This document shows, piece after piece, positions 1,718 to 18,981 of a stretch of DNA of 19,015 nt (its first letter is position 1; every line of letters begins with the position of its first letter). The position numbers and the translations under genes are program-made. The stretch is from Planctomycetota bacterium. GTDB lineage: Bacteria > Planctomycetota > GCA-002687715 > DRQF01. The DNA is taken from the NCBI GenBank assembly GCA_027001995.1, contig JALTLO010000074.1, forward strand, positions 1 to 19,015, read 5' to 3'. The notes under the pieces are model-generated. The model made no database searches and was not told the origin of the DNA. It saw only the letters and a list, made by a program, of their open reading frames with translations.

Positions 1718-2899
1718 TCAATCCTGTCCCATGGTCAAATAGGTCCGTCCAGTTTCCCTTTCTCCGCTTTTCTCTGCGAGCATGGCAGAGACTAGCCTAA
1801 GCAAGGAGTCGACATTGGGAAATACGCCGACGACCTTGACTCTCCTGCTCACCTCCAAATTGAGGCGCTCAATCGAGTTCGAAGTTCTTAGTTTCTTCTG
1901 ATGCCTTGCTGGCACGGCGAAGACAGTCAAGGATTCCGGTATGTTCTCTTCCATCCAAGTCGCCAGCTCGGGCGCTTGCCCTTGATATTCCTTGACGGTC
2001 TCTTTGAGCAGTCTGTCAGCGTTCGTCCGATTTTTCGCATTGAAGACAGCCTTTATGGCCCTCGCGACGTCTTCTTTCATCGCCACTTTTGGCACGTGTG
2101 CCTGGGCGTTCTGTTGCAGATGAAATTGGCATCTTTGCCAGGGTACGGTCGGGAATCGGGCAGATATAGCCGCTTTCAATCCCGAATGCCTATCGCTGGT
2201 AATCAGTTCGACACCATAAAGCCCTCGATTTTGCAAACTCTCAAAAAAGTCTCGCCAGTGCGTTTCGGCTTCCGACAGGGCCACGCTAACGCCAAGAATG
2301 GACCTCTTGCCACTTTCGTTGACTCCGACAGCAATCAAGACCGCGACGTCGATGACGCTGCCGCTATGGCGCACTTTTACGTACTTTGCGTCTACAGTGA
2401 GATAGCGGGTTTCTCCGATGGCTCGGTTGCGCCATATCTCCAGTTCGTCATCGAGAAGCTTGGCCGCTCGTGAGACCTGCATGGAGGTGATATTGAGACC
2501 ACAGAGTTTCTCGGTGATGGCCGCCACTTTACGAGTCGAGACCCCCTGCACGTAAGACTCTGCCACCGCCAACACCAAAGCCCGTTCGCCACGAGGGCCT
2601 TTGTCCAAGGTCTGGGGGTAGAATCGTTCCTCACCTTCCTCTAACCCTCTCACTTGAGGGATCTTGAGTTCGATTTGACCAGCTCGGGTGTCCATTTTCT
2701 TCGGTTTGTAGCCGTTGGCGTAGCCATGCCTCGTTTCACTTCGCTGGTAAGGGCCTGCACCAATGAAAGCGGAGCGCTCATGCCTCATGGCTTCGTTCAT
2801 GAGAATTTCCATGCACTTGGCCATGGCGTCAAAGCCATTTTCAGTGAGTAGTTCCAAAACGCATTCCATCACAGCAGGATCATTTTCGGGTCGAGTCAT
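1718..2899 (-). CDS. IS256-family (Mutator-like) DDE transposase
   Basis: 393 aa with family motifs NGYKPK, YVQGVSTRKV, YLTVDAKY (D), LITSDRHSG (D), WQRCQFH (CxxH) and TSNSIERLNLE (E). Confidence 0.96.
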   Translation of the reverse strand: MTRPENDPAVMECVLELLTENGFDAMAKCMEILMNEAMRHERSAFIGAGPYQRSETRHGYANGYKPKKMDTRAGQIELKIPQVRGLEEGEERFYPQTLDKGPRGERALVLAVAESYVQGVSTRKVAAITEKLCGLNITSMQVSRAAKLLDDELEIWRNRAIGETRYLTVDAKYVKVRHSGSVIDVAVLIAVGVNESGKRSILGVSVALSEAETHWRDFFESLQNRGLYGVELITSDRHSGLKAAISARFPTVPWQRCQFHLQQNAQAHVPKVAMKEDVARAIKAVFNAKNRTNADRLLKETVKEYQGQAPELATWMEENIPESLTVFAVPARHQKKLRTSNSIERLNLEVSRRVKVVGVFPNVDSLLRLVSAMLAEKSGERETGRTYLTMGQD

Positions 2900-4968: not shown

Positions 4969-5322
4969 CACTCTCAATGTAAGACCAGTCTCTGGTCTTT
5001 CGGCTCCTGTGTATCCCGAAAACCCAAGGAACCTATCTTGACAGCCGGTCAAGCCTGCGATTTTCGAGGGCGACCGATGATTTGGGCGTTGGTCAACTGA
5101 GTTTCTCCGGGAGATGAAAAGCCAGGACAGACTTCGACATGGAATCGACCTGTCTCTTTTTCTTTTCTTAGGCTGCGGAACGTGTCCATATGCGGAATCG
5201 CTGAACAAAGGCAAGTTGTCTGAACTTTTTCTTTTGATTAGGGTATATGGATTAAGGTGGATTACAGATGTGGTGTACTCATCGCTCCACGGGGCATCCA
5301 TTCCCATGTAATAGGGCAATTT

Positions 5323-8124
5323 ATGCGTTCGCAATATCCAGCTGGAGGCTTTTGGGCAGCCATTTTGGTTTGCTTTCTCGTCGATTTTCTTTTCTTAGGC
5401 CATGCCCTTCTCTCGGATGACGTCCGAGCTCCTGCGGCAGACATTGACTATGCGTTGCCATACGCCCAGGAGTTTAACGTGCGCCCCGATCCCTGCGCCA
5501 ACATCTATCTCATTGATTGGTCTCACTCGGTCCATTCGTGGCAGCGATTGGTGCGAGATTCCTATTTAAAGGGCCAACTGCCTCTGTGGAATGACCGGGC
5601 TGGCTGTGGCCAGCCCCTCTTGGGGAACCTTCAAACTGAGATTTTCTCACCGTACCAACCAATCAACCTCATAGCAGGCGACCAATACGTCGATTGGAGG
5701 CAGCTAGCCACTTTGCTTGTCGCTCAGGTCTGTTCTTTGTTCTTGATCTATGTTCTCGGTCTATCTCCTTGGGCTGGTCTTGTTGCTGCGATCGGATTTT
5801 CGTTCGGTTCCTATATGCAGGTTTGGTCTGTGCTGCCTGTCGTTGGCAGTGCGGCATTCTCGCCAGCCATCTTCGCCTCCTTCATTTGCTTGCGCCGCCG
5901 GTTCTCTTGGACTACGGTTTCTTGGGGTGGGTTGGTTGTCGGTTTGTCGATCTTGTCCGGTCATATTGAATCGACGTTTATGGCTTGTTTAGCGGCATGT
6001 GGTGTGACCTTTCTTGCGGGCGGTGACCGCAACGAGGGGATGCCTCAAGCCCTCAGAGCCCGCGCTCTCTTTGTCTTCCAGGCCGGACTAGTTGGTCTCG
6101 TGGGTTTAGGATTGGCGGCTTGTCAACTTCTGCCCTTCTTTGACTATCTTGATCAGTCCCTTGTAATGAGCATTCGGAAATCCGCCCCTCAAGTCACAAT
6201 TCCGCCCCGCCAAGTATTGGCGCTCATGGACCCGAAGGCTTTTGGGTTTCCGACAGATGCCGGAGGCTATTTTGGTGCTAAGAACTATCTTGAGGCCATC
6301 GTTCATGTGGGGCGAGTCGTTTTGGCGTTGTCTCTCGTGGGGTTGATTGGGGGTATTTGGGCCAGAAGAAAATTTGTCATTCCTCTTTTTTTGATAGTCA
6401 CATTCAGCATCGCTCTGGCGTTTTCTCCTCCTTCATTTCACGACAAGATTCAGTTCTTCCCGTTCAACGTCATGCCCATGATGCGTATGCATTTTGTCGG
6501 TTCGATGCTCTTGCCCGTCTTGGCTGCCTTCGGCCTTGACTTCATCATGAATAGCATCAAAAAGAGGCAAATAGTTGCCAAGCGCATTGCCATGGCTACT
6601 TTGATCCTTTTGGCATTGTTCCATGTTGTATTGCTGTCGTTCTTTGCCCCCCGGCCCGAGAACATCGGGGCATTCGCCATCGGAGGAGTTGATTTTATTG
6701 GGCCACTTATTTTCTTGGGGATGACGGCAGCCGTCTTGATCTTCTGGAGGCATGGAAAAAAACGAGCCCCTTGGCTGTGCGCCGTTTTGCTATTGAGCGT
6801 TGCGATTTTGGAATCTACCACCCTTTGGTGGCCTTTTGTTCCACTTGGCAAAGCGACCTCGCTTTCTCCGCAGTCCCCAAGCATTGAGTACATCGAAGAA
6901 AAGACGGAAAGGCTTCGCTTGCTGCCGTCGGAGAAACAGCTTACGCCTGAGTTGGGGAATCTGCATGACATAACCAGCCTGAAGGTCTACGATGGCATGG
7001 GCATGGCGAGGCACACAGCGTTGTTCTTTTTTCAAGGTGGGCTCTATGGTGTAACGACTCACTTGCCTATTTTTGGAATTCAGCCAGCGACTTTGGACAT
7101 GTTGAGTGTTGGTTGGACGTTGACTGAGTGGGCCCCTGAGAGATCATTGTTGCCGATGGGGGAGCAAGTCCTGGCATCTGGGCACGAGTCGGAATTCCCT
7201 TTTGTTTACCAAGAAGGCGTGCCTCTCGAATTCATCGTTTCTCAATCTGGCAAGCAAGCACTTGTTCCGGGCGCATTTGAGCTTTCGATGTGGACCAAGG
7301 ACGAGGCGAAGTTGACTTGGGTCTTGGGGGAGGAAGGCAAAGCCAATTCTATGGGCGCGATTCATGCAAAAGCGGACGATGCAATGCGCTCTTATCTCAA
7401 CAATCTCGATCGTATTTTCGATCGACCCCATACTTACATTGCATTTCAACCGACGTCTTCGATCAAGACGGGAACAAGAATGACTGGCAAGATTCGCGTG
7501 GCAACGACAAGCCCCTCTATTCACTTGCGCGTCATCGCGAGAGACGGTCTTCAGGCGAAAGAAGTGTTTCAGCATCGAGGGATCTTCGTCGGACGCCGAG
7601 AGACCGCAATGCCACGATCCTATTTGGCGGCAGCCACGACGTTTTGCCAACCTGAGCCCTCGAAGAATGACGATGAACCCCTTGACGTCCGTTTCATGAG
7701 ACAAGCGATTGCTGATGTCTCCGCATCCGGGTTTGATCCTCATAAAGTTACAATCCTTGAGTCGGGGGAACGATCAGATTTTTCCATTCCTCATAGAGTC
7801 TCAAGCGAACCCACAGCTCTTGTGGTGAAGAAACTTGCGTCTGGTAGGTTTCTAATAGACTCAGAGAAACAAGATTCGTCGGTACTTGTGTTTTCCGAGT
7901 GCTATGATCGGGGATGGCGGGCCCGCATTGATGGTGAACTCACCGACATCATTCCCGCCAATGTTTGTTCAATGGCAGTTGCCTTGCCTCCTGGTAGGCA
8001 CACGATCGAGTTTTACTTCTGGCCACGATCGTTGACGGTGGGGTTTGCGATAACCTTCGCGACACTCTTGTTTGTGATAGCTGTTCTCATCTATGGACGT
8101 CGTCCAGCGACCCTCGGTAGATAG
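5323..8124 (+). CDS. YfhO-family multi-pass membrane protein (GT-C fold glycosyltransferase-like)
   Basis: Motifs GQLPLWNDRAGCGQPLLGNLQTEIFSP, LSILSGHIE and QLLPFFDYLDQS, many TM helices, and the C-terminal LVFSECYDRGWRARIDG...ANVCSMAVALPPGRHTIEFYFWP followed by a final TM helix. ATG 5323 is preferred over the ORF-track start at 5257. Confidence 0.88.
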   Translation: MRSQYPAGGFWAAILVCFLVDFLFLGHALLSDDVRAPAADIDYALPYAQEFNVRPDPCANIYLIDWSHSVHSWQRLVRDSYLKGQLPLWNDRAGCGQPLLGNLQTEIFSPYQPINLIAGDQYVDWRQLATLLVAQVCSLFLIYVLGLSPWAGLVAAIGFSFGSYMQVWSVLPVVGSAAFSPAIFASFICLRRRFSWTTVSWGGLVVGLSILSGHIESTFMACLAACGVTFLAGGDRNEGMPQALRARALFVFQAGLVGLVGLGLAACQLLPFFDYLDQSLVMSIRKSAPQVTIPPRQVLALMDPKAFGFPTDAGGYFGAKNYLEAIVHVGRVVLALSLVGLIGGIWARRKFVIPLFLIVTFSIALAFSPPSFHDKIQFFPFNVMPMMRMHFVGSMLLPVLAAFGLDFIMNSIKKRQIVAKRIAMATLILLALFHVVLLSFFAPRPENIGAFAIGGVDFIGPLIFLGMTAAVLIFWRHGKKRAPWLCAVLLLSVAILESTTLWWPFVPLGKATSLSPQSPSIEYIEEKTERLRLLPSEKQLTPELGNLHDITSLKVYDGMGMARHTALFFFQGGLYGVTTHLPIFGIQPATLDMLSVGWTLTEWAPERSLLPMGEQVLASGHESEFPFVYQEGVPLEFIVSQSGKQALVPGAFELSMWTKDEAKLTWVLGEEGKANSMGAIHAKADDAMRSYLNNLDRIFDRPHTYIAFQPTSSIKTGTRMTGKIRVATTSPSIHLRVIARDGLQAKEVFQHRGIFVGRRETAMPRSYLAAATTFCQPEPSKNDDEPLDVRFMRQAIADVSASGFDPHKVTILESGERSDFSIPHRVSSEPTALVVKKLASGRFLIDSEKQDSSVLVFSECYDRGWRARIDGELTDIIPANVCSMAVALPPGRHTIEFYFWPRSLTVGFAITFATLLFVIAVLIYGRRPATLGR

Positions 8125-10456: not shown

Positions 10457-11521
10457 TCATTTTTCGCTGTCGAAGCGCCTGCGCCATCTCAGTGCTAGGC
10501 CCACCAAACCGATGAGCATCGGCACCTCAACCAAAGGGCCGATAATCGCTGCGAAAGCAACATCAGAGTGAATGCCAAAAACTCCAACAGAAACGGCGAT
10601 GGCTAGTTCGAAGTTGTTGCTGGCTGCGGTAAACGCGATGGTTGCGGTTTTCGGGTAGTCTGCACCAAGTTTCCTGCCGAGCCAGAAGGACACGATGAAC
10701 ATGACAAGGAAATAGATCCCGAGAGGGAGGGCAATGCGTAAGACATCAAACGGTAGCTCGACGATGGCACCACCTTTGAGTGAGAACATTGTGACAATTG
10801 TAAACAACAAAGCGATGAGTGTTAGGGGCGAGATCTTGGGAATGAAGTGGTTTTCGTACCAATGGTGCCCCTTTGACTTGACAAGGGTAAAACGCGTGAA
10901 GATCCCTGCAGCGAAGGGAATGCCAAGATAAATGAAGACACTCGTGGCGATGTCCGCGATGGCAACATCGACGGTCGCACTTGCAAATCCAAAGATGGGT
11001 GGTAACACCGTCACAAAAAACCAGGCGTAGGCCGAGAAAAGAAGCATTTGAAATATTGAGTTCAACGCCACCAAACCAGCAGCGTACTCGGGATCTCCAC
11101 CTGCCAGATCGTTCCAAACGATGACCATGGCAATACAGCGCGCCAAACCGATGATGATCAGTCCGATTCGATATTCTGGGTGGCTGGGCAGTAGGAGCAA
11201 GGCGAGCCCAAACATCAGGATTGGGCCAAGGAACCAATTGAGAAACAAGGAGGCGGAAAGTACTTTGCCGTCGCGTAAGACGTTGGAGAGTTTGTCGTAT
11301 CGTACTTTTGCTAGGGGTGGATACATCATCAAGATGAGGCCAGCGGCAATGGGGATGTTTGTCGACCCGACGCTGAGACGCCCGATCATCTCACCCATAC
11401 CCTCGATGAAATGGCCCAAGGTGACGCCAAGAATCATCGCTAAGATGATCCACAGGCTCAGATACCGATCGAGGAATGAAAGGCGGCCTTGCGCATTCTC
11501 GAAGGAGCTTGAGTCTTTCAT
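10457..11521 (-). CDS. acr3: ACR3-family arsenite efflux transporter
   Basis: Motifs [38 protein letters not shown] (conserved Cys), [11 protein letters not shown] and IGPLVEVP. The real start is ATG 11521 (MKDSSS), preceded by AGGAAGG. The 92-aa extension in the ORF track is not protein-like. Confidence 0.96.
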
Positions 11522-11901
11522 TTTAGCCTTCCTGCTTTTTGTGAAGCGGCCGAAGCATAAGACTATATAACAAAAAATGAATATATTAAAACCCCTTCGA
11601 TTGGGGATAAATTGCCACCCATTTTTGGCTTGCAGAACGCAGGGCACCAATGTCATGAAGGAGGAAGGTTCATCTTTCCCCAATAGATGATCGTTCTTCG
11701 AGGGAGTTAACGGTCGCATGGTGTAGCTGTGTGCAATCAATCGGCCGACTCTATCAGGCGAGGTGCAATTGGGATACCATCTTCCCATGGTCGACACGAA
11801 GATTGGAAAACTTGCTAGGGCCTGAAAATCCTTCTTCGCGACCAGGGCTTTATTGGTGAATCACTATTGGAGGGGGAATGTTCCCTCTGTGGGAGGAAAT
11901 G

Positions 11902-12696
11902 ATGAAGAAGAATCTAACGATGATCCCAGCTATTCTGGCCGTGACGATTGTGGGTGCCCTATGCAGTTGTGGCGAGGGGCCGGCAGATCAGCAAGAAGGG
12001 TTGTTGGTATCGTCGGATAGACCTGGCCATGATCAACAGGAGGCCCAACCCATGGCATCAAGAGAGACGGAAGTTACTTTCTACGTGGGTGGTTTGATGA
12101 AAACAGAATCTGGCGCCACCTGACTTGGCTGACCCAATAAGGTCGACGAATCCCTGGAAGGGATTCACCCATCCGTGAAGACGTCATGGAATTATGACGC
12201 CGATCAAATCACAATCACTTTCGATGCGAGTGTCGTTCAGTCATCCATTCTCAAGAAGAAAATCGAAGAGCTTGGATATGAAGCCAAAGCAGCCGAAAAA
12301 GTTCCAGGAAAACGGGCGCCAACAAAGCGCATGTCTTTAGAAAAATCGATTCCAAGCGACTTGCAAGCTGCCCTCGCTCGTGCAGAGAAAGACAATCACC
12401 TCGTTGTCGTTGACTTCTGGGCCACCTGGTGTGCTCCCTGCATCAAACTCAAGAAGACGACCCTTCAAAATCCACTGGTGACACAACTTTTGGAGGGGGT
12501 TGAGCTGGTGTTTGTTGACCTGGATCAGCATCCTGAGCTTGGCAAATTGTGGGGCGTGCATTCCGTTCCAGACGTCTTGTTTATTGATAGCCGAGGCCGA
12601 GTCTTTGATCGACTTAAGAGCTACGAGGCTCCTGGCCCCTTCGGGAAACGTCTCGAGGCTGCTATTGCCGAACACAGTAGAACTTCGGAGAAATGA
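11902..12696 (+). CDS. Putative selenoprotein lipoprotein: HMA-like domain with a UxxU motif fused to thioredoxin (WCAPC), 264 aa with two in-frame TGA codons
   Basis: RBS GGAGG at 11892-11896. The signal peptide ends in the lipobox LCSC. Reading through TGA 12121-12123 and TGA 12130-12132 gives VTFYVGGLMKTESGAT-U-LG-U-PNKVDESLEGIHPSVKTSWNYDADQITITFDASVV...IEELGYEA, in frame with VVVDFWATWCAPC...SVPDVLF. Confidence 0.85.
12148..12166 (+). promoter_or_regulatory. Candidate bacterial SECIS element
   Basis: Perfect 8-bp stem GAATCCCT/AGGGATTC with a GGA loop (12156-12158). The loop begins 23 nt after the second TGA and 32 nt after the first, and its first base is G. Confidence 0.72.
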
Positions 12697-13220: not shown

Positions 13221-16200
13221 TCATGACTCTTGTGTTGGTTTGCTTGTCGTCGAGAGGCCGTAACCAAAGCGTCGTCGCATGCTTTCGATCAAGTGAAAGA
13301 GTACCGGCACCACAAGAAGCGTCAAGAAAGTACCGGCAATCAGCCCGCCAATAGCGACAACCGCCAGGGGTGAAAGCCTTTCAATACCAGCCGCCCATTC
13401 TAGGGCAATAGGAACCATGCCCACGACGGATGCACCTGCCGTCATAAGAATTGGACGGGTTCGCACTTTCACCGCAGCGAGAATCGCGTCCCGCAATGAC
13501 TGGCCCTGTTCAATTCCCAGTTTGGCAAAATCTACCAGGAGGATGCCGTTGTTGACCACAATCCCCATGAGAAGAATGAAACCCATGAATGAAGGTAGAC
13601 AACCGTGCTTATCTGCGGCCAGCATAGCCCAGGCCGCACCAATCAGAGCCAGGGGCAGCGTCCCCATGATGGCCAAAGGATCAAGGAAAGATTTGAACGT
13701 GACGACCAACATGAAATAGAGCAGAACGAGGCCGATGACGAGTGCTTTCAGGAGCCGTCCGAAAGACTCATCCATCTGATTGATTTCCCCTTCGAATGAC
13801 AAAGCATAGTCTCTTGGAATCACCAAATCAGAAAGAGCGTTCTTTATATTTTCGTGGAGTGCCGTTACGGAAATGTTCCGGCGATAACCGACGACATCCA
13901 CAGTGGGCAAGAGATTTTGATGAGTTTCTGCCGTATGTGCTTCGGTGGTAACCATCTTGGCCATGCTCACAAGTGGAACAGTTTTACCATCAGTACCTCG
14001 GATCTGGAGTGCATCTAGTTGCTCCTCGGACTCCGTCTGGGTGTGTGGTAGCCGCACCCTGATCGGGATGGGGTTGCGACTCTCAACACGCAAGAAGCCT
14101 GCAATTTGTCCAGAAACGGCGGAAGATACTTGGGTGGCAACATCACTTGCAGATAGCCGATGCAGCTTCGCTTCCGTTGCATCCACTTTGAGATTCCAGC
14201 GCTTGGCTCCCCCGTGCCACGTACGAAATGAACCTGTCATGCCCGGGACTTGGGCCATCCGATGAAGCACGTCGTCCGCGAGGCCGTCGAGCACCACTGG
14301 GTCAGGGCCTGTCACCATGACATCTACACAACCCCGAAGTGAGGTCACGGCCGTTGCGCCAAACTCAAAAACATCAGCCGTAATAAGCCCCGGAATCGAG
14401 CGGATCTTAGAGCGCAACTCTTCTTCAAAATCGTAGATCGAACGCTCTCTTTGTAGCCGATCAACGATGTTAACGGTGATATCACCTTGTTGGAGCGTCC
14501 TCGCCGCCCCAAATGACTTGACACCCGGTTCAGAACCGACGATAGCCGAGATGGTCAAGAGCTCCTTTGTTGGAATGACTTCAGAAATCATCGATTCGAC
14601 CTGTTTGGTAATCGCCGACATACCTTGATCGTCTGTGTCTGGTTCCGCCTCGAAGTGAATCTGAATGACCCCGGTGTCCATGAGGGGCATGAGCTCACGA
14701 CCTAGGACCGGCATTTGACGAGCGGATACCCCAAATAGAACTAAGGCACCAAGCAAGACGACGAACCGCCAACCCAAACCCCATGATACGACTGCACCGT
14801 AGAAAGCTCGGGCAGGCTGCAGTAAGCCCACCGCGAAGATTCGAAACACCCAAGATAAAGGGTCCTTCGCTTTTGGATTCAAGAACCAGGCCGCTAGGAG
14901 TGGGATAATGGTGACGGAGATGACTAATGAGGCTATGAGAGAAACTGAGAGAGTGACTGTGAGTGGACGCAAGACAGTTTCGACAAATCCACCGACAAGC
15001 ATGATCGGAATGAGAACGATGACAGTACTGATCGTACCCGAGGCATCAGCCAACAAGATTTCTTTGGTGGCATCGGCGGCCGCTTTCAATCCATTCTTCT
15101 TCAGTTCGCGCATATGGCGTTCGACATTCTCGATAACGACAACCGCATCATCCGCCAAGAGGCCAACGGCGATGATGATGGCGGTCAAAGTGACCATGTC
15201 TAATTCAAAATCGAGAAGGCGCAAAACGACGAAGGTCAGGAGATAGGTGAGTGGCAAGGAAACAGCCGTTATAATGGCGGCTCTCAGGTTGCCAATGAAC
15301 AAGAGAATGACCAACAGCGTCATGATCAATGCGTCTCTTAGAGCATCAACTAGGTTGGCGACTGTGATGTCAATGAGCCGGCCTTGCGTGTCAGCGATAT
15401 CGATCCTAAGCATGGGGAAGCGCGTTCGAAGCCGGGGGAGAGCCTCTTCTACGGACTTCAGGCAAGTGCTGGCATTTCCCTGTTCTGAGCGCAGCAAAGA
15501 AACCGCGATAGCCCTGTGCCCGTTGCCCCGATAGAGGGCAGTTGGGTCATCCTCGCTCCAGTGAACTTCTGCTATATCAGACACTCGCACGTATTGACCT
15601 TCACCCAAAGAAACAAGGATTTCCCCTAGGTCTGAAGGTCCAATTTTTAGGTCTTGAACGTTGAGAAGAATTCGCTCCCGGCCCGCATGAATCTCACCAG
15701 CAGGTATGGAAACATTTGAGTCCGCAATAGCGCGGGACACATCTCCAACAGTCAGTTTGTAAGTGTCGAGAAGATCGCGGTCCACTTCCACCAATAATTC
15801 TCGTTTGTGACCACCGAAGATTTCGACTTCGGCAATGCCTTCTATGCCTAACAGGGCATCACGCAAGGGGTTCTCAGCCAGCAGCCGCACTTCGTCCAAA
15901 CTCATGGTTTGGTCGTCGGCCACGGATACGGCAAGTACCACCACGGGATGAGCCGCATCCGTCACCTTAAAGATGAGGGAGTTGCCTACATTCTTGGGTA
16001 GAATACCTCTCACACGCGGTAGTTCGTTGGCGACGTCCGTAGCAGCTGCTTCTATGTTCACGCCATATTCAAATTCAACGCTGACTGACGAAACCTCATC
16101 CCTCGATGTCGAGGTGACACGGCGAACACCATCGATCGCCGACAGCCGGACTTCAATGGGGTGTGAGACATCAGTTGCGACATCATCCGAAGTCGCCCCT

Positions 16201-16355
16201 TTCCATGGGGTGATGACGCTGACGACCGGCCTACTCGTATCGGGGAAAAGATTGAGTGGCATTGCCTCAAATGAAAGCCAACCGCCAAAGATTGTCGCCA
16301 CGCAAAATGCAAGAACGAAGTGTGGATTCTTAAGGATGCGGTCAACGAAACTCAT
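13221..16355 (-). CDS. RND efflux transporter permease subunit (AcrB/AcrD/AcrF family)
   Basis: 1044 aa with MPLNLFPD, GLLADDAVVVIENV (TM4 Asp pair), GIVVNNGILLVDF, RTRPILMT and PLAVVAIGGL. Confidence 0.96.
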   Translation of the reverse strand: MSFVDRILKNPHFVLAFCVATIFGGWLSFEAMPLNLFPDTSRPVVSVITPWKGATSDDVATDVSHPIEVRLSAIDGVRRVTSTSRDEVSSVSVEFEYGVNIEAAATDVANELPRVRGILPKNVGNSLIFKVTDAAHPVVVLAVSVADDQTMSLDEVRLLAENPLRDALLGIEGIAEVEIFGGHKRELLVEVDRDLLDTYKLTVGDVSRAIADSNVSIPAGEIHAGRERILLNVQDLKIGPSDLGEILVSLGEGQYVRVSDIAEVHWSEDDPTALYRGNGHRAIAVSLLRSEQGNASTCLKSVEEALPRLRTRFPMLRIDIADTQGRLIDITVANLVDALRDALIMTLLVILLFIGNLRAAIITAVSLPLTYLLTFVVLRLLDFELDMVTLTAIIIAVGLLADDAVVVIENVERHMRELKKNGLKAAADATKEILLADASGTISTVIVLIPIMLVGGFVETVLRPLTVTLSVSLIASLVISVTIIPLLAAWFLNPKAKDPLSWVFRIFAVGLLQPARAFYGAVVSWGLGWRFVVLLGALVLFGVSARQMPVLGRELMPLMDTGVIQIHFEAEPDTDDQGMSAITKQVESMISEVIPTKELLTISAIVGSEPGVKSFGAARTLQQGDITVNIVDRLQRERSIYDFEEELRSKIRSIPGLITADVFEFGATAVTSLRGCVDVMVTGPDPVVLDGLADDVLHRMAQVPGMTGSFRTWHGGAKRWNLKVDATEAKLHRLSASDVATQVSSAVSGQIAGFLRVESRNPIPIRVRLPHTQTESEEQLDALQIRGTDGKTVPLVSMAKMVTTEAHTAETHQNLLPTVDVVGYRRNISVTALHENIKNALSDLVIPRDYALSFEGEINQMDESFGRLLKALVIGLVLLYFMLVVTFKSFLDPLAIMGTLPLALIGAAWAMLAADKHGCLPSFMGFILLMGIVVNNGILLVDFAKLGIEQGQSLRDAILAAVKVRTRPILMTAGASVVGMVPIALEWAAGIERLSPLAVVAIGGLIAGTFLTLLVVPVLFHLIESMRRRFGYGLSTTSKPTQES

Positions 16356-17518
16356 CGGGAACCCCTCCGGACAGGCTGCACGTTGTCACCATCCTTGAGC
16401 CGCCGAAGAGTGCTACGGTGCGCGACGACGACGGCATCGCCAGTCTGAACATCACCAAGCACGGCAATTTCCCGCCCGGATCTCAGATCGGCGATGACGC
16501 GGACCAATTCCAAGACGAAGCTCCCTTCACCTTGACCTTGTACTACTTTGAACAGGACGCCATGGCGATCCTTCCTAGTCGGCAAGAATGCGCGGGCAGG
16601 AATGATTGTCGCGTTGTCTCTTTTCTCGAGGGCAATGAGAGCTTTCACCCTGGCCCCACTTGGTAGACCAAATGGCCTTTCCTCTAAGTCAGATTCGACC
16701 ATCCCCAGTGCATCGGCGTCCAGCGCGGGATGAATGCGGTTGATGACAACGGGAATGGCTTTCTCTTGGTAAGCAAGAGAAAAGGTCGTTCCTGGTTCTA
16801 CCTGTTCGATGACCCTTTGGGGTAGCTTCACTGTGACCCGCGCACCTTTCGCCACAGTAATCCGATAGAGAGGGTGAGCCAAAGAACAAACAGCACCGGG
16901 CTCAGCCAAGCGTGCAGCGATGACGCCATCGGTGGGGGAACGGACCATGCCATAGCCTCTTCGGACGTTGAGCGCGGCGATACTTCGACGGAGCGATTCT
17001 TCACTGTCTTTTGACTCAAGTACCGAAGTCTCGTAGGTGTCAACACGAGATTGAGTGCTGCCACCAACCTTAAGCAAACTCTTCTCGCGTTCTCGTTCTA
17101 CGAGAAGATTGGCGGTTGCAGCAGCTGTGGCCCTGAGTTTGGCCTCTGTTGATTTGATCTGTTCCTCAATTTCACGAGAATCGATCTGAGCCAATAGATC
17201 TCCTTTCTTGACAGCAACGCCTTCTCTTGGCCCCATTTTGATGATGGACCCAGAGAGTTGGCCATTGACCACAATTTCTGCCTTACTCGTGAGGGTTGCA
17301 AGAGCGGGAAACTCTCGCGCCAAATTCCCTTTTCTCACATCAACAGTTTCTAATGCCCAAGGAGGAACCTCGCTCACCTGTTGATTGGCAATGGCCTGGA
17401 TGCGATCATTTCGCAAGCGTAAGGCACGTTTGCCAACGAGAATCGCTGCCACAACAAGAAGCGCAACCCCCAAGATCTTTAGGAGCGTTCTTCCTCGCCC
17501 GTGTTTCGCAACATTCAT
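16352..17518 (-). CDS. RND efflux periplasmic adaptor (membrane fusion protein)
   Basis: N-terminal TM anchor, lipoyl half-motifs EGVAVKKGDLLAQID and VRSPTDGVI, a coiled-coil hairpin and LKDGDNV. It overlaps the permease by ATGA. Confidence 0.93.
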   Translation of the reverse strand: MNVAKHGRGRTLLKILGVALLVVAAILVGKRALRLRNDRIQAIANQQVSEVPPWALETVDVRKGNLAREFPALATLTSKAEIVVNGQLSGSIIKMGPREGVAVKKGDLLAQIDSREIEEQIKSTEAKLRATAAATANLLVEREREKSLLKVGGSTQSRVDTYETSVLESKDSEESLRRSIAALNVRRGYGMVRSPTDGVIAARLAEPGAVCSLAHPLYRITVAKGARVTVKLPQRVIEQVEPGTTFSLAYQEKAIPVVINRIHPALDADALGMVESDLEERPFGLPSGARVKALIALEKRDNATIIPARAFLPTRKDRHGVLFKVVQGQGEGSFVLELVRVIADLRSGREIAVLGDVQTGDAVVVAHRSTLRRLKDGDNVQPVRRGSR

Positions 17519-18981
17519 GGACGTACCTCTTTCTTTTGAGTACTTGGGTAAGACATGGGCTCCAGCCCAACTGTTAGGTGCATCAGGTCAACGGCTGCTA
17601 GGACATCGACTTTCGCAATCGATAACTCGCCACGAGCGCGGGCCAAGGCGGCTTCGGTATCGACCAGATCCGCCGCAGAAAGCCGACCAATCTTAAACCG
17701 CTCTCTTTGAGAAACCGCCGTCTTTTCTGCAGCTTCCGAGCCCGTCTTCGCTGCCAAATATCGGGTTCGAGCTGAATCATTTAAGGCTTGGGCGGTGAAG
17801 TAGTCGGCCCGTGCTGTTTCTTCCAAACGATGTAATTCTTCTAAGGCTTCGCGCCGTTTTGATCTGGCGATCCCCAACAGTGCTGCTCGTCTCCCGCCGG
17901 AGAAAAGAGGCATCTCCAATCCGATGCTGACCTGCCCAATCGTGTTGCCTTGAACATCCGCTCCTGCGAGGTGTTCCAACCTACCTTCCAAGAACAACTC
18001 TGGTTTGTACCGTGAGAGGGCCACTTCTTCGGCCTCCCCGGCAGCGTACAGTTGTGCCAGAGCCGCTTGCAGGTCAGGTCTGTCTGCGACCAATTCAATG
18101 GAAGGCGCGAAAATCGGTGGAAGTACGCCGGGTCGCGGAATCTGAGGTATCTGCGGGCCGGCAAGGATGGCCTCCAGATTTGCCTTGGCTGCTACACGAC
18201 GACTCTTCAGGGTGGCGAGATCTCCTTGAACTCGCGCCAGAGCAGCCTCCAAGCGGTGTTGCTCGACTTCAGCGAGCCGGCCTAATTTGACTGACTCGAT
18301 CGCAATGTTCACTTGCGCGGCAAGAGATCTTCGTTGTTGCTCCAAAGCAGTTTCCAAGCCATCAATCCGTTGTAAGTCGCGATAAAAAGTAGCAGCCGCG
18401 TGTAGCACTGTCAGTCGCGTATTCTTTTCCAGGAATGCCGTTGCATCCCGGCTCCAACCGGCCTTGCGCGTATTGGCTCCAATCCGGCCGCTTAAATCGA
18501 GATTTAGCCGTCCGGAAAGCCCAACATCAACCACGTTGTCGTCAAAGGGAAGAGAACCGATGTTGATGGGAGGTGACAAAGGAACGATGACTCTCTTGTT
18601 GGCGAACTGAGTATCGCGAACGAATAAGGAAATCTCGCCCCAGTATTCCGAGCGGGCCAGATCGAACCCGTCTTGTCCCGACTTTGTTCTGGCCGCGGCA
18701 GCGAGAACCGCCGGGGCACGGGTTTCGGCTGCGCGCAGGATTGCCGCCAGAACAGGCTCTGAGGAGGTACTATCTAGCGAAGGAAGAGTCATCGTGGAAG
18801 CCTGAGGCTCTCGGCGAATCTGAATGCCTCGATTAAGAGGCTGAGCCGGTGGCCAGTTTATGCCAGCGCATGCTGAGAATAGGGTGGAAGCTGCAACCAA
18901 CACGACGAGGTGGCTTGTCCTAAGACCTGCTTTTTTCTCCGCCTGCTTAGCCATGGCTAAGTTTCGGATGAACGCGCTCAT
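17515..18981 (-). CDS. TolC-family outer membrane efflux protein (lipoprotein)
   Basis: Lipobox LFSAC, RPDLQAA, IGLEMPLFSGG and ERFKIGRLSAADLVDTE. It overlaps the MFP by ATGA. The exact start is uncertain. Confidence 0.92.
   Translation of the reverse strand: MSAFIRNLAMAKQAEKKAGLRTSHLVVLVAASTLFSACAGINWPPAQPLNRGIQIRREPQASTMTLPSLDSTSSEPVLAAILRAAETRAPAVLAAAARTKSGQDGFDLARSEYWGEISLFVRDTQFANKRVIVPLSPPINIGSLPFDDNVVDVGLSGRLNLDLSGRIGANTRKAGWSRDATAFLEKNTRLTVLHAAATFYRDLQRIDGLETALEQQRRSLAAQVNIAIESVKLGRLAEVEQHRLEAALARVQGDLATLKSRRVAAKANLEAILAGPQIPQIPRPGVLPPIFAPSIELVADRPDLQAALAQLYAAGEAEEVALSRYKPELFLEGRLEHLAGADVQGNTIGQVSIGLEMPLFSGGRRAALLGIARSKRREALEELHRLEETARADYFTAQALNDSARTRYLAAKTGSEAAEKTAVSQRERFKIGRLSAADLVDTEAALARARGELSIAKVDVLAAVDLMHLTVGLEPMSYPSTQKKEVRP

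Follow-up and report, generated by a model that had tools for sequence, protein, structure and literature searches.

The gene studied here lies on the forward strand of the window, by which we mean the whole stretch of 19,015 nucleotides that was analysed, and gene callers had divided it in two. The original prediction held that the two called open reading frames (11878..12123 and 12175..12696) share one frame and are separated only by TGA-CTT-GGC-TGA and 14 sense codons, and translation confirmed this arrangement. The only in-frame stops between 11902 and 12696 are the triplets at 12121-12123 and 12130-12132 and the terminal TGA at 12694-12696. The features of the locus, with the evidence for each, are as follows.

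10457..11521, minus strand: acr3 arsenite efflux gene, divergent and probably linked (TIGR00832 over cut-off)
11892..11896, plus strand: GGAGG, Shine-Dalgarno-like, 5 nt upstream of the ATG at 11902 (sequence)
11902..12696, plus strand: complete coding sequence, 264 residues with selenocysteine (Sec) at both internal TGAs, with signal, HMA domain with UxxU, and thioredoxin
11902..11970, plus strand: lipoprotein-type signal peptide with a lipobox-like LCSC end, Cys23 at 11968-11970 (sequence)
11971..12060, plus strand: variable polar stretch, putative tether from the lipid anchor to the HMA domain (length and sequence unconserved among homologs)
12061..12294, plus strand: HMA domain of the MerP/CopZ fold (Pfam PF00403 over cut-off, AlphaFold2, Foldseek)
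12094..12120, plus strand: family-specific 9-residue loop LMKTESGAT, from strand 1 to the first Sec (8-9 residues in 33/33 aligned members)
12121-12123, plus strand: TGA codon of Sec74 (TGA at 34/34 family loci)
12130-12132, plus strand: TGA codon of Sec77 (TGA at 33/34 family loci, TGC for Cys at one)
12148..12166, plus strand: SECIS-type hairpin with an 8-bp stem and a GGA loop (folding, frozen codons, covariation)
12175..12177, plus strand: GTG, called start of the spurious second reading frame (ORF list; database homologs begin past UxxU)
12349..12672, plus strand: thioredoxin domain (Pfam Thioredoxin and Thioredoxin_7, structural matches)
12427-12441, plus strand: WCAPC of the thioredoxin (sequence)
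12562-12573, plus strand: cis-Pro loop SVPD of the thioredoxin (sequence)

As originally proposed, TGA is a normal stop in this DNA: of 10 window ORFs checked, 7 terminate in TGA, the UxxU-HMA-thioredoxin gene among them. Since TGG is used by all 10 of these ORFs and a tRNA-Trp(CCA) was found in the genome, the code is the standard one, and genome-wide recoding of TGA was rejected. The run that best covers the gene is a hydrothermal vent metagenome, possibly its source, and a contig from a second sample in this study matches positions 11933-12139 without difference; it carries both TGAs and ends 7 bases later, which speaks, if weakly, against an assembly error. Three sequencing runs from other studies left the TGAs uncovered, one of them having a contig that matches the SECIS stretch only, and no RNA is listed among the runs that match this gene. 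A promoter and terminator scan at the locus stayed at chance level, and it yielded no convincing operator repeat.

We then looked at the domains of the read-through protein. Its HMA domain scores 28-30 bits with Pfam PF00403 (gathering cut-off, 24.8), and the two TGAs align with the CxxC of the CopZ, CopA and ATP7B metal-binding domains, which is the position assigned to them at the outset. The expectation that the read-through sequence folds as an HMA domain was borne out by AlphaFold2, which returned the beta-alpha-beta-beta-alpha-beta order with a pLDDT of 91.8 for this domain alone. Foldseek gave MerP (1osd) as the best solved match of the model (TM 0.80/0.87, rmsd 1.5 A), CopZ also being among the nearest solved folds. 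Canonical HMA models align to the protein from residue 70 onward only. In canonical HMA domains strand 1 and the ligand pair are 2 residues apart, so that the loop of this family would be 6-7 residues longer. By analogy with the CxxC site, the two Sec residues may bind metal as a diselenol.

The thioredoxin domain obtained 44 bits with Pfam Thioredoxin. AlphaFold2 modelled the two-domain part (HMA and thioredoxin) with a pLDDT of 93 and a pTM of 0.85, the best structural matches of the thioredoxin being DsbD gamma domains; the fold, the CxxC and the cis-Pro loop expected of a thioredoxin-fold oxidoreductase are all present. The domain was found in all 33 complete loci of the family described below, with CxxC in 16 and UxxC in 17, and on the family tree, which is unrooted and built from related genomes, this label needs two changes. 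Two close homologs carry CVPC in their thioredoxin. At two loci (L144 and L149), we observed an in-frame TGA two residues past the cis-Pro (IPDTU), which would bring the predicted number of Sec to four per chain. A lipobox-like motif, scored by a loose pattern match and not by a dedicated predictor, stands at 30 of the 34 family loci, and Lgt was found in the genome; the protein is thus probably exported and lipid-anchored. DsbD is present in the genome as well.

A family profile was built from 10 homologs and searched over 401 genomes of the same phylum. The top 33 matches (E ≤1.6e-14; the 10 used to build the profile and 23 new ones) all have two TGAs, in agreement with the initial view that chance nonsense mutations would hardly strike these two codons alone. 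The next match reads TGA...TGC and is followed by a gap, after which ordinary HMA domains appear from E 2.8e-10. The family therefore comprises 34 loci in 32 of the 401 genomes, this genome included, which also carries a second copy (a paralog). As anticipated, homologs have TGA or Cys at both sites: 33 of the 34 have both TGAs and one has TGA...TGC, and the two TGAs recur across the 33 loci even where protein identity falls to about 22%. The full architecture of signal, HMA domain and thioredoxin is present at 33 of 34 loci, whereas a contig end truncates the remaining one. On inspection, six weaker matches with TGA were excluded from the family counts: four are U-x-x-x-U HMA domains with the canonical loop length (one of them thioredoxin-fused), one is a single-U HMA domain and one has an ordinary stop.

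Searches of public databases returned fragments. All 11 database homologs with E ≤1e-20 are split and start downstream of the UxxU, and close homologs on titled public contigs belong to Planctomycetota MAGs. A metagenome scan with the full protein kept 80 loci, all matching the thioredoxin part only at 25-45% identity. A profile run against 1.84 billion representatives had only multi-HMA proteins among its best 150 matches, none with a single matching stretch, and the 6 of these that we inspected are ordinary HMA repeats. A region-limited homolog search recovered only the window's own second ORF, and the 16 matches obtained when longer proteins were searched are P-type ATPases. These database and profile searches, whose limited sensitivity makes them weak evidence of absence, did not yield a full-length homolog with Cys only. 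On plasmids, 78 records matched, none over more than 80% of the query, and the 10 listed are thioredoxin-level matches.

Decoding of UGA as Sec calls for a dedicated machinery, and the genes selA, selB, selC and selD, named in the original prediction as a check, are all present in the genome. The selA and selD genes and the tRNA-Sec are clustered on one contig and selB is on another (the genome is 92% complete); selD, an ORF beside selA identified by inspection, itself carries a TGA in frame where the catalytic residue is encoded. Among the other 31 carriers, selA was found in 29 and selB in the other 2, meaning that Sec machinery was detected in all 32 carrier genomes. For reference, selA exceeds its cut-off in 278 of the 401 sampled Planctomycetota genomes, which is the background of the phylum.

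The SECIS-type hairpin has a predicted folding energy of about -12 kcal/mol, and its loop lies 32 nt past the first UGA and 23 nt past the second. Both values fall inside the 16-37 nt that the bacterial spacing rule, as quoted in a recent review (PMC13188914), allows after a UGA. Within the hairpin the codons are frozen (Leu CTG 34/34, Gly GGG 33/33, Ala GCC 26/27); the invariant Pro and Val just past the second TGA and a nearby invariant Gly use mixed synonymous codons. In the ungapped 34-row alignment the stem is paired in 91% of cells with 19 two-sided changes, the rows being related so that these counts are not probabilities. None of 500 shuffles reached the observed pairing, controls in which the stem was slid along the alignment gave at most 61%, and RNAalifold recovered the same stem unaided. 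A single SECIS hairpin would thus appear to serve both UGAs.

One could argue that the two triplets are genuine stops or errors, the locus being a pseudogene, two separate genes or an assembly error. In favour of this stand the database records, split in 11 of 11 cases, and the failure of database searches to find a full-length Cys-only homolog. Against it, the same two TGAs are retained in 33 loci whose protein identity goes as low as about 22%, a split would sever the HMA fold at its active site, the codons right past the stops are under protein-level constraint and then run into a covarying SECIS, and all 32 carriers have Sec machinery. We consider the broken-gene reading strongly disfavoured and give it hardly any weight. 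Taken together, these results lead us to set at about 96% the probability that SelB and tRNA-Sec decode both UGAs by means of a single downstream SECIS, giving an HMA domain with a UxxU motif fused to a thioredoxin. That the gene encodes a genuine double-Sec HMA-thioredoxin lipoprotein is well supported by the comparative sequence data, its function being a matter of prediction.

How does this protein relate to known families? The original prediction cited SelL as the known UxxU example, and on this point it was too narrow, since HMA-type UxxU selenoproteins are already catalogued: NCBIfam NF041115 (UxxU_metal_bind, 'metal-binding (seleno)protein') is tabulated with 2 Sec as a 'putative mercuric reductase' (tables of PMC13188914 and PMC9312934), and Prx-like proteins with UxxU are known too. 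Like NF041115, our family has an HMA-type domain in which both metal-binding Cys positions are Sec, and when 4 relatives were scanned, all 4 matched NF041115 best among the HMA models (33-58 bits). The present domain, however, reaches only 26-27 bits against a cut-off of 95, four CopZ/MerTP-type models score equally or higher, and NF041115, a model of 74 positions, differs from a family that has a lipoprotein signal, a pre-Sec loop of 8-9 residues and a thioredoxin. No protein of the 401 phylum genomes passes the NF041115 cut-off, and ordinary CxxC HMA domains there reach 73 bits. Membership in NF041115 was rejected on these scores.

The protein resembles MerP, CopZ and Atx1 in its fold, in the position of the ligand pair, in its predicted export and in the genes for MerT-family transporters and MerR-family regulators that often lie beside its own. 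It differs from them by Sec in place of Cys, the loop insertion, the lipid anchor, the thioredoxin fusion and the lack of a MerA over cut-off in the carriers, and it misses the MerP and CopZ equivalog cut-offs (17-20 bits against 92.55 for TIGR02052, MerP). The thioredoxin shares its fold, WCxxC and cis-Pro loop with DsbD gamma, which is the best structural match, and with TlpA, whose motif is the CVPC (PMC6669012) seen in the two close homologs; unlike these, it is fused to its presumed client, carries UxxC in half of the family and remains below all equivalog cut-offs. The selenoproteins NF045683 (MerT_CopZ_Se), NF045694 (TsoB) and NF041199 (Trx7/PDZ) each share one domain with the protein, its fusions or its neighbours, with other architectures and Sec positions and with scores far from the cut-offs (17/375, 48/805 and, for a PDZ-fused relative, 45/300). 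A 'MerP' selenoprotein entry of the GOS set was rejected as the same protein, its supplementary sequence being unrelated.

The family had been put forward as undescribed, and this stood in the libraries and literature searched. No NCBIfam model (June 2026) and no row in the table of 119 families of a 2026 review (PMC13188914) corresponds to an HMA-thioredoxin selenoprotein. Nor was a description found in the accessible portions of the literature, including 10.1101/2022.07.06.499078, PMC1976440, PMC2398784 and PMC13326102; BSepDB, Haft and Tolstoy 2025, the SelL paper and the bioRxiv supplements could mention one. Thus, UxxU in an HMA domain is already known, and what is new is the predicted combination of lipid anchor, longer loop and thioredoxin fusion.

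We next studied the neighbours of the 34 loci using crude ORF scripts and a Pfam scan, which covered 119 of 121 near ORFs and 185 of 283 wider-flank ORFs; the flanks were between 0.2 and about 6 kb long. In the fetched flanks of 19 loci we found a metal or metalloid gene (a raw count with overlapping categories), and in the examined flanks of the other 15 none. Counted by locus, a MerT-domain gene occurs at 6 (at 5 of them a CopZ-N/MerT/HMA fusion), a MerR-family gene at 8, a CsoR-type gene at 2 and acr3 at 3, with arsR alongside at 2; a CopZ-N or HMA gene is present at 2 more loci, and MerC, a Cu-type ATPase and a Cus-like RND system were also seen. For comparison, regulator and transporter genes of these kinds number about ten in the 5.2 Mb of this genome. 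Among 6 MerR-family neighbours scanned, the best model was MerR for 5 and ZntR for 1, all below cut-off; 5 of 7 such regulators keep three Cys, a pattern that we take to be of the Hg or divalent type.

At the window locus acr3 takes the place of merT or merR; apart from this divergent gene, only a convergent RND operon belongs to the metal context. The divergent acr3, together with arsR, recurs in two other genomes (G003 and G007). Between the window's acr3 and the UxxU-HMA-thioredoxin gene, upstream of the latter, neither arsR nor a remnant of it was detected. The RND efflux operon (outer-membrane factor, adaptor and permease; 13221-18981, minus strand) converges on the gene and scores below the CusA/CzcA cut-off. 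The window also contains a Mutator-family transposase (1718-2899, minus strand), an LRR protein (631-1635) and a YfhO-like membrane protein (5257-8124).

The second copy of this genome lies at the beginning of contig C188 (1-1060), behind the tail of an HMA gene, and at the end of another contig, C156, stand merR and a CopZ-N/MerT gene that is cut short; the end of C156 and the start of C188 are probably one operon interrupted by the contig break. On its minus strand, from about 6624 to 1, this C156 metal island (genome G000) encodes MerR, an outer-membrane barrel-like protein, a small lipoprotein, a second MerR and the cut CopZ-N/MerT fusion, and the small lipoprotein has a UxxU HMA domain with canonical spacing. 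MerA exceeded the TIGR02053 cut-off in none of the 32 carriers, which are MAGs of 76-95% completeness and include some with matches of 385-417 bits; in this genome the best score is 312 bits against a cut-off of 454. The matches of 385-417 bits in several carriers might represent a divergent MerA. One MerA-like flavoprotein (G045:C184:11912-13252; 390 bits, below cut-off) lies about 7 kb from a family member. Since no carrier has a MerA over cut-off, the classical MerP-MerT-MerA mercury route is unsupported, and a classical mer system was rejected.

As to function, we favour, with some reserve, a periplasmic soft-metal chaperone of the MerP/CopZ type with a built-in reductase; this seems somewhat better than an even bet. 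Selenolates bind soft metals more tightly than thiolates, and diselenides are harder to reduce than disulfides. The two selenolates would capture a soft, thiophilic ion in the periplasm, such as Cu(I)/Ag(I), Hg(II), Cd(II) or, in this clade, As(III), and hand it over to a transporter. The typical partner would be the CopZ-N/MerT/HMA fusion transcribed together with the gene. With DsbD recharging it, the fused thioredoxin would keep the easily oxidised Se pair reduced or help the ion to leave, and the UxxC version found in half of the family would suit the reduction of a diselenide. A precedent for a periplasmic thioredoxin acting on a metal chaperone is TlpA, reported to reduce the Cu chaperone ScoI (PMC6669012). 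Several observations count against the chaperone reading: the partners are mixed (Hg/Zn-type MerR, CsoR with Cus, ArsR/Acr3), and 15 of the 34 loci lack a metal gene in the examined flanks. A thioredoxin with Cys only may, moreover, be too weak for diselenide reduction, which we also counted against the coupling of chaperone and reductase.

The selenoprotein could instead be a pure redox device that carries no metal. Its HMA diselenide would then exchange electrons with the attached thioredoxin and with proteins of the envelope, serving reduction or isomerisation during metal or oxidative stress. A PDZ/thioredoxin-like protein with two adjacent TGAs is paired or fused with the family gene in at least 5 genomes, which points to redox work, as do the thioredoxin present in every complete member (UxxC in 17 of 33), the fourth Sec by the cis-Pro loop at 2 loci and the fact that the closest solved structure is oxidised MerP; the pTM of 0.85 of the two-domain model further suggests that the domains pack together. 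The HMA fold and the Sec positions are nevertheless those of metal chaperones, and 19 of the 34 loci adjoin metal transporters or metalloregulators, so that we regard this reading as unlikely, if the most serious competitor of the chaperone. Less probable still is a dedicated arsenic role in this clade, where the diselenol would bind As(III) or methyl-As(III), either leaving via Acr3 or scavenged in the periplasm, and the thioredoxin would reset the site or release the ligand. Arsenic-linked selenoproteins do exist (families tabulated in PMC13188914), and the acr3 of the window is divergent, as are the arsR-acr3 pairs of G003 and G007. However, acr3 occurs at only 3 of 34 loci, which are not independent because all come from one GTDB family; for the close paralog here and for the ortholog in G001 the neighbours are MerR or MerT-fusion genes instead; and arsR was not detected between acr3 and the window gene.

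Extending the chaperone reading, one may imagine the family as the core of a selenium-based system for handling metals in the envelope of Planctomycetota without a recognised MerA. Electrons would pass along an intramolecular relay, from DsbD to the CxxC or UxxC of the thioredoxin and on to the UxxU of the HMA domain; the diselenol would capture a soft metal or metalloid, release or reduce it chemically and hand it to the MerT fusion with its Fe-S domain. With up to four Sec per chain, and with one SECIS for two UGAs three codons apart, such a system would cooperate with selenoproteins encoded nearby, among them the PDZ/thioredoxin Sec-Sec protein. As a whole this scheme is speculative and we would not expect all of it to hold.

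The results add to the known selenoproteins a family present in 32 of 401 sampled Planctomycetota genomes, of which every database record found is a fragment, and they suggest that in uncultured Planctomycetota the use of selenium to handle metals or metalloids has escaped annotation. The protein offers a small soluble test case for the role of a diselenol at a classical CxxC metal site and for the recycling of a diselenide by a tethered thioredoxin, where the natural CxxC and UxxC versions allow comparison. The gene likewise offers one for a single bacterial SECIS serving two UGAs three codons apart.

Other TGA-bearing genes were observed in or beside family members and elsewhere in the phylum. 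The PDZ/thioredoxin-like proteins are secreted; they are fused to the family gene in L125 and L130 and neighbour it in L121 (2209-3021), L135 and L142. They carry a GAETUU motif followed by a conserved hairpin-forming stretch, their match to NF041199 (listed as CxxU) is weak or absent, and they are possibly Sec-Sec dipeptide selenoproteins; tblastn did not find one in the genome of the window. A MerR-family regulator (L136:2150-2600, minus strand) has a TGA at the second conserved Cys with the third Cys in frame, and could be either a Sec-containing metalloregulator or the product of a nonsense mutation. Directly upstream of another family member, a MerT-domain protein runs into GMT-TGA (L138:2133-2636, minus strand) and is a candidate MerT/HMA selenoprotein. 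Extra UxxU or UxxxU domains occur within L145 and L151 and in the gene downstream of L131. Further TGA-bearing HMA types of the phylum, with U-x-x-x-U and a canonical loop (one of them thioredoxin-fused) or with a single U, were seen at L154, L155, L156, L158 and L157.
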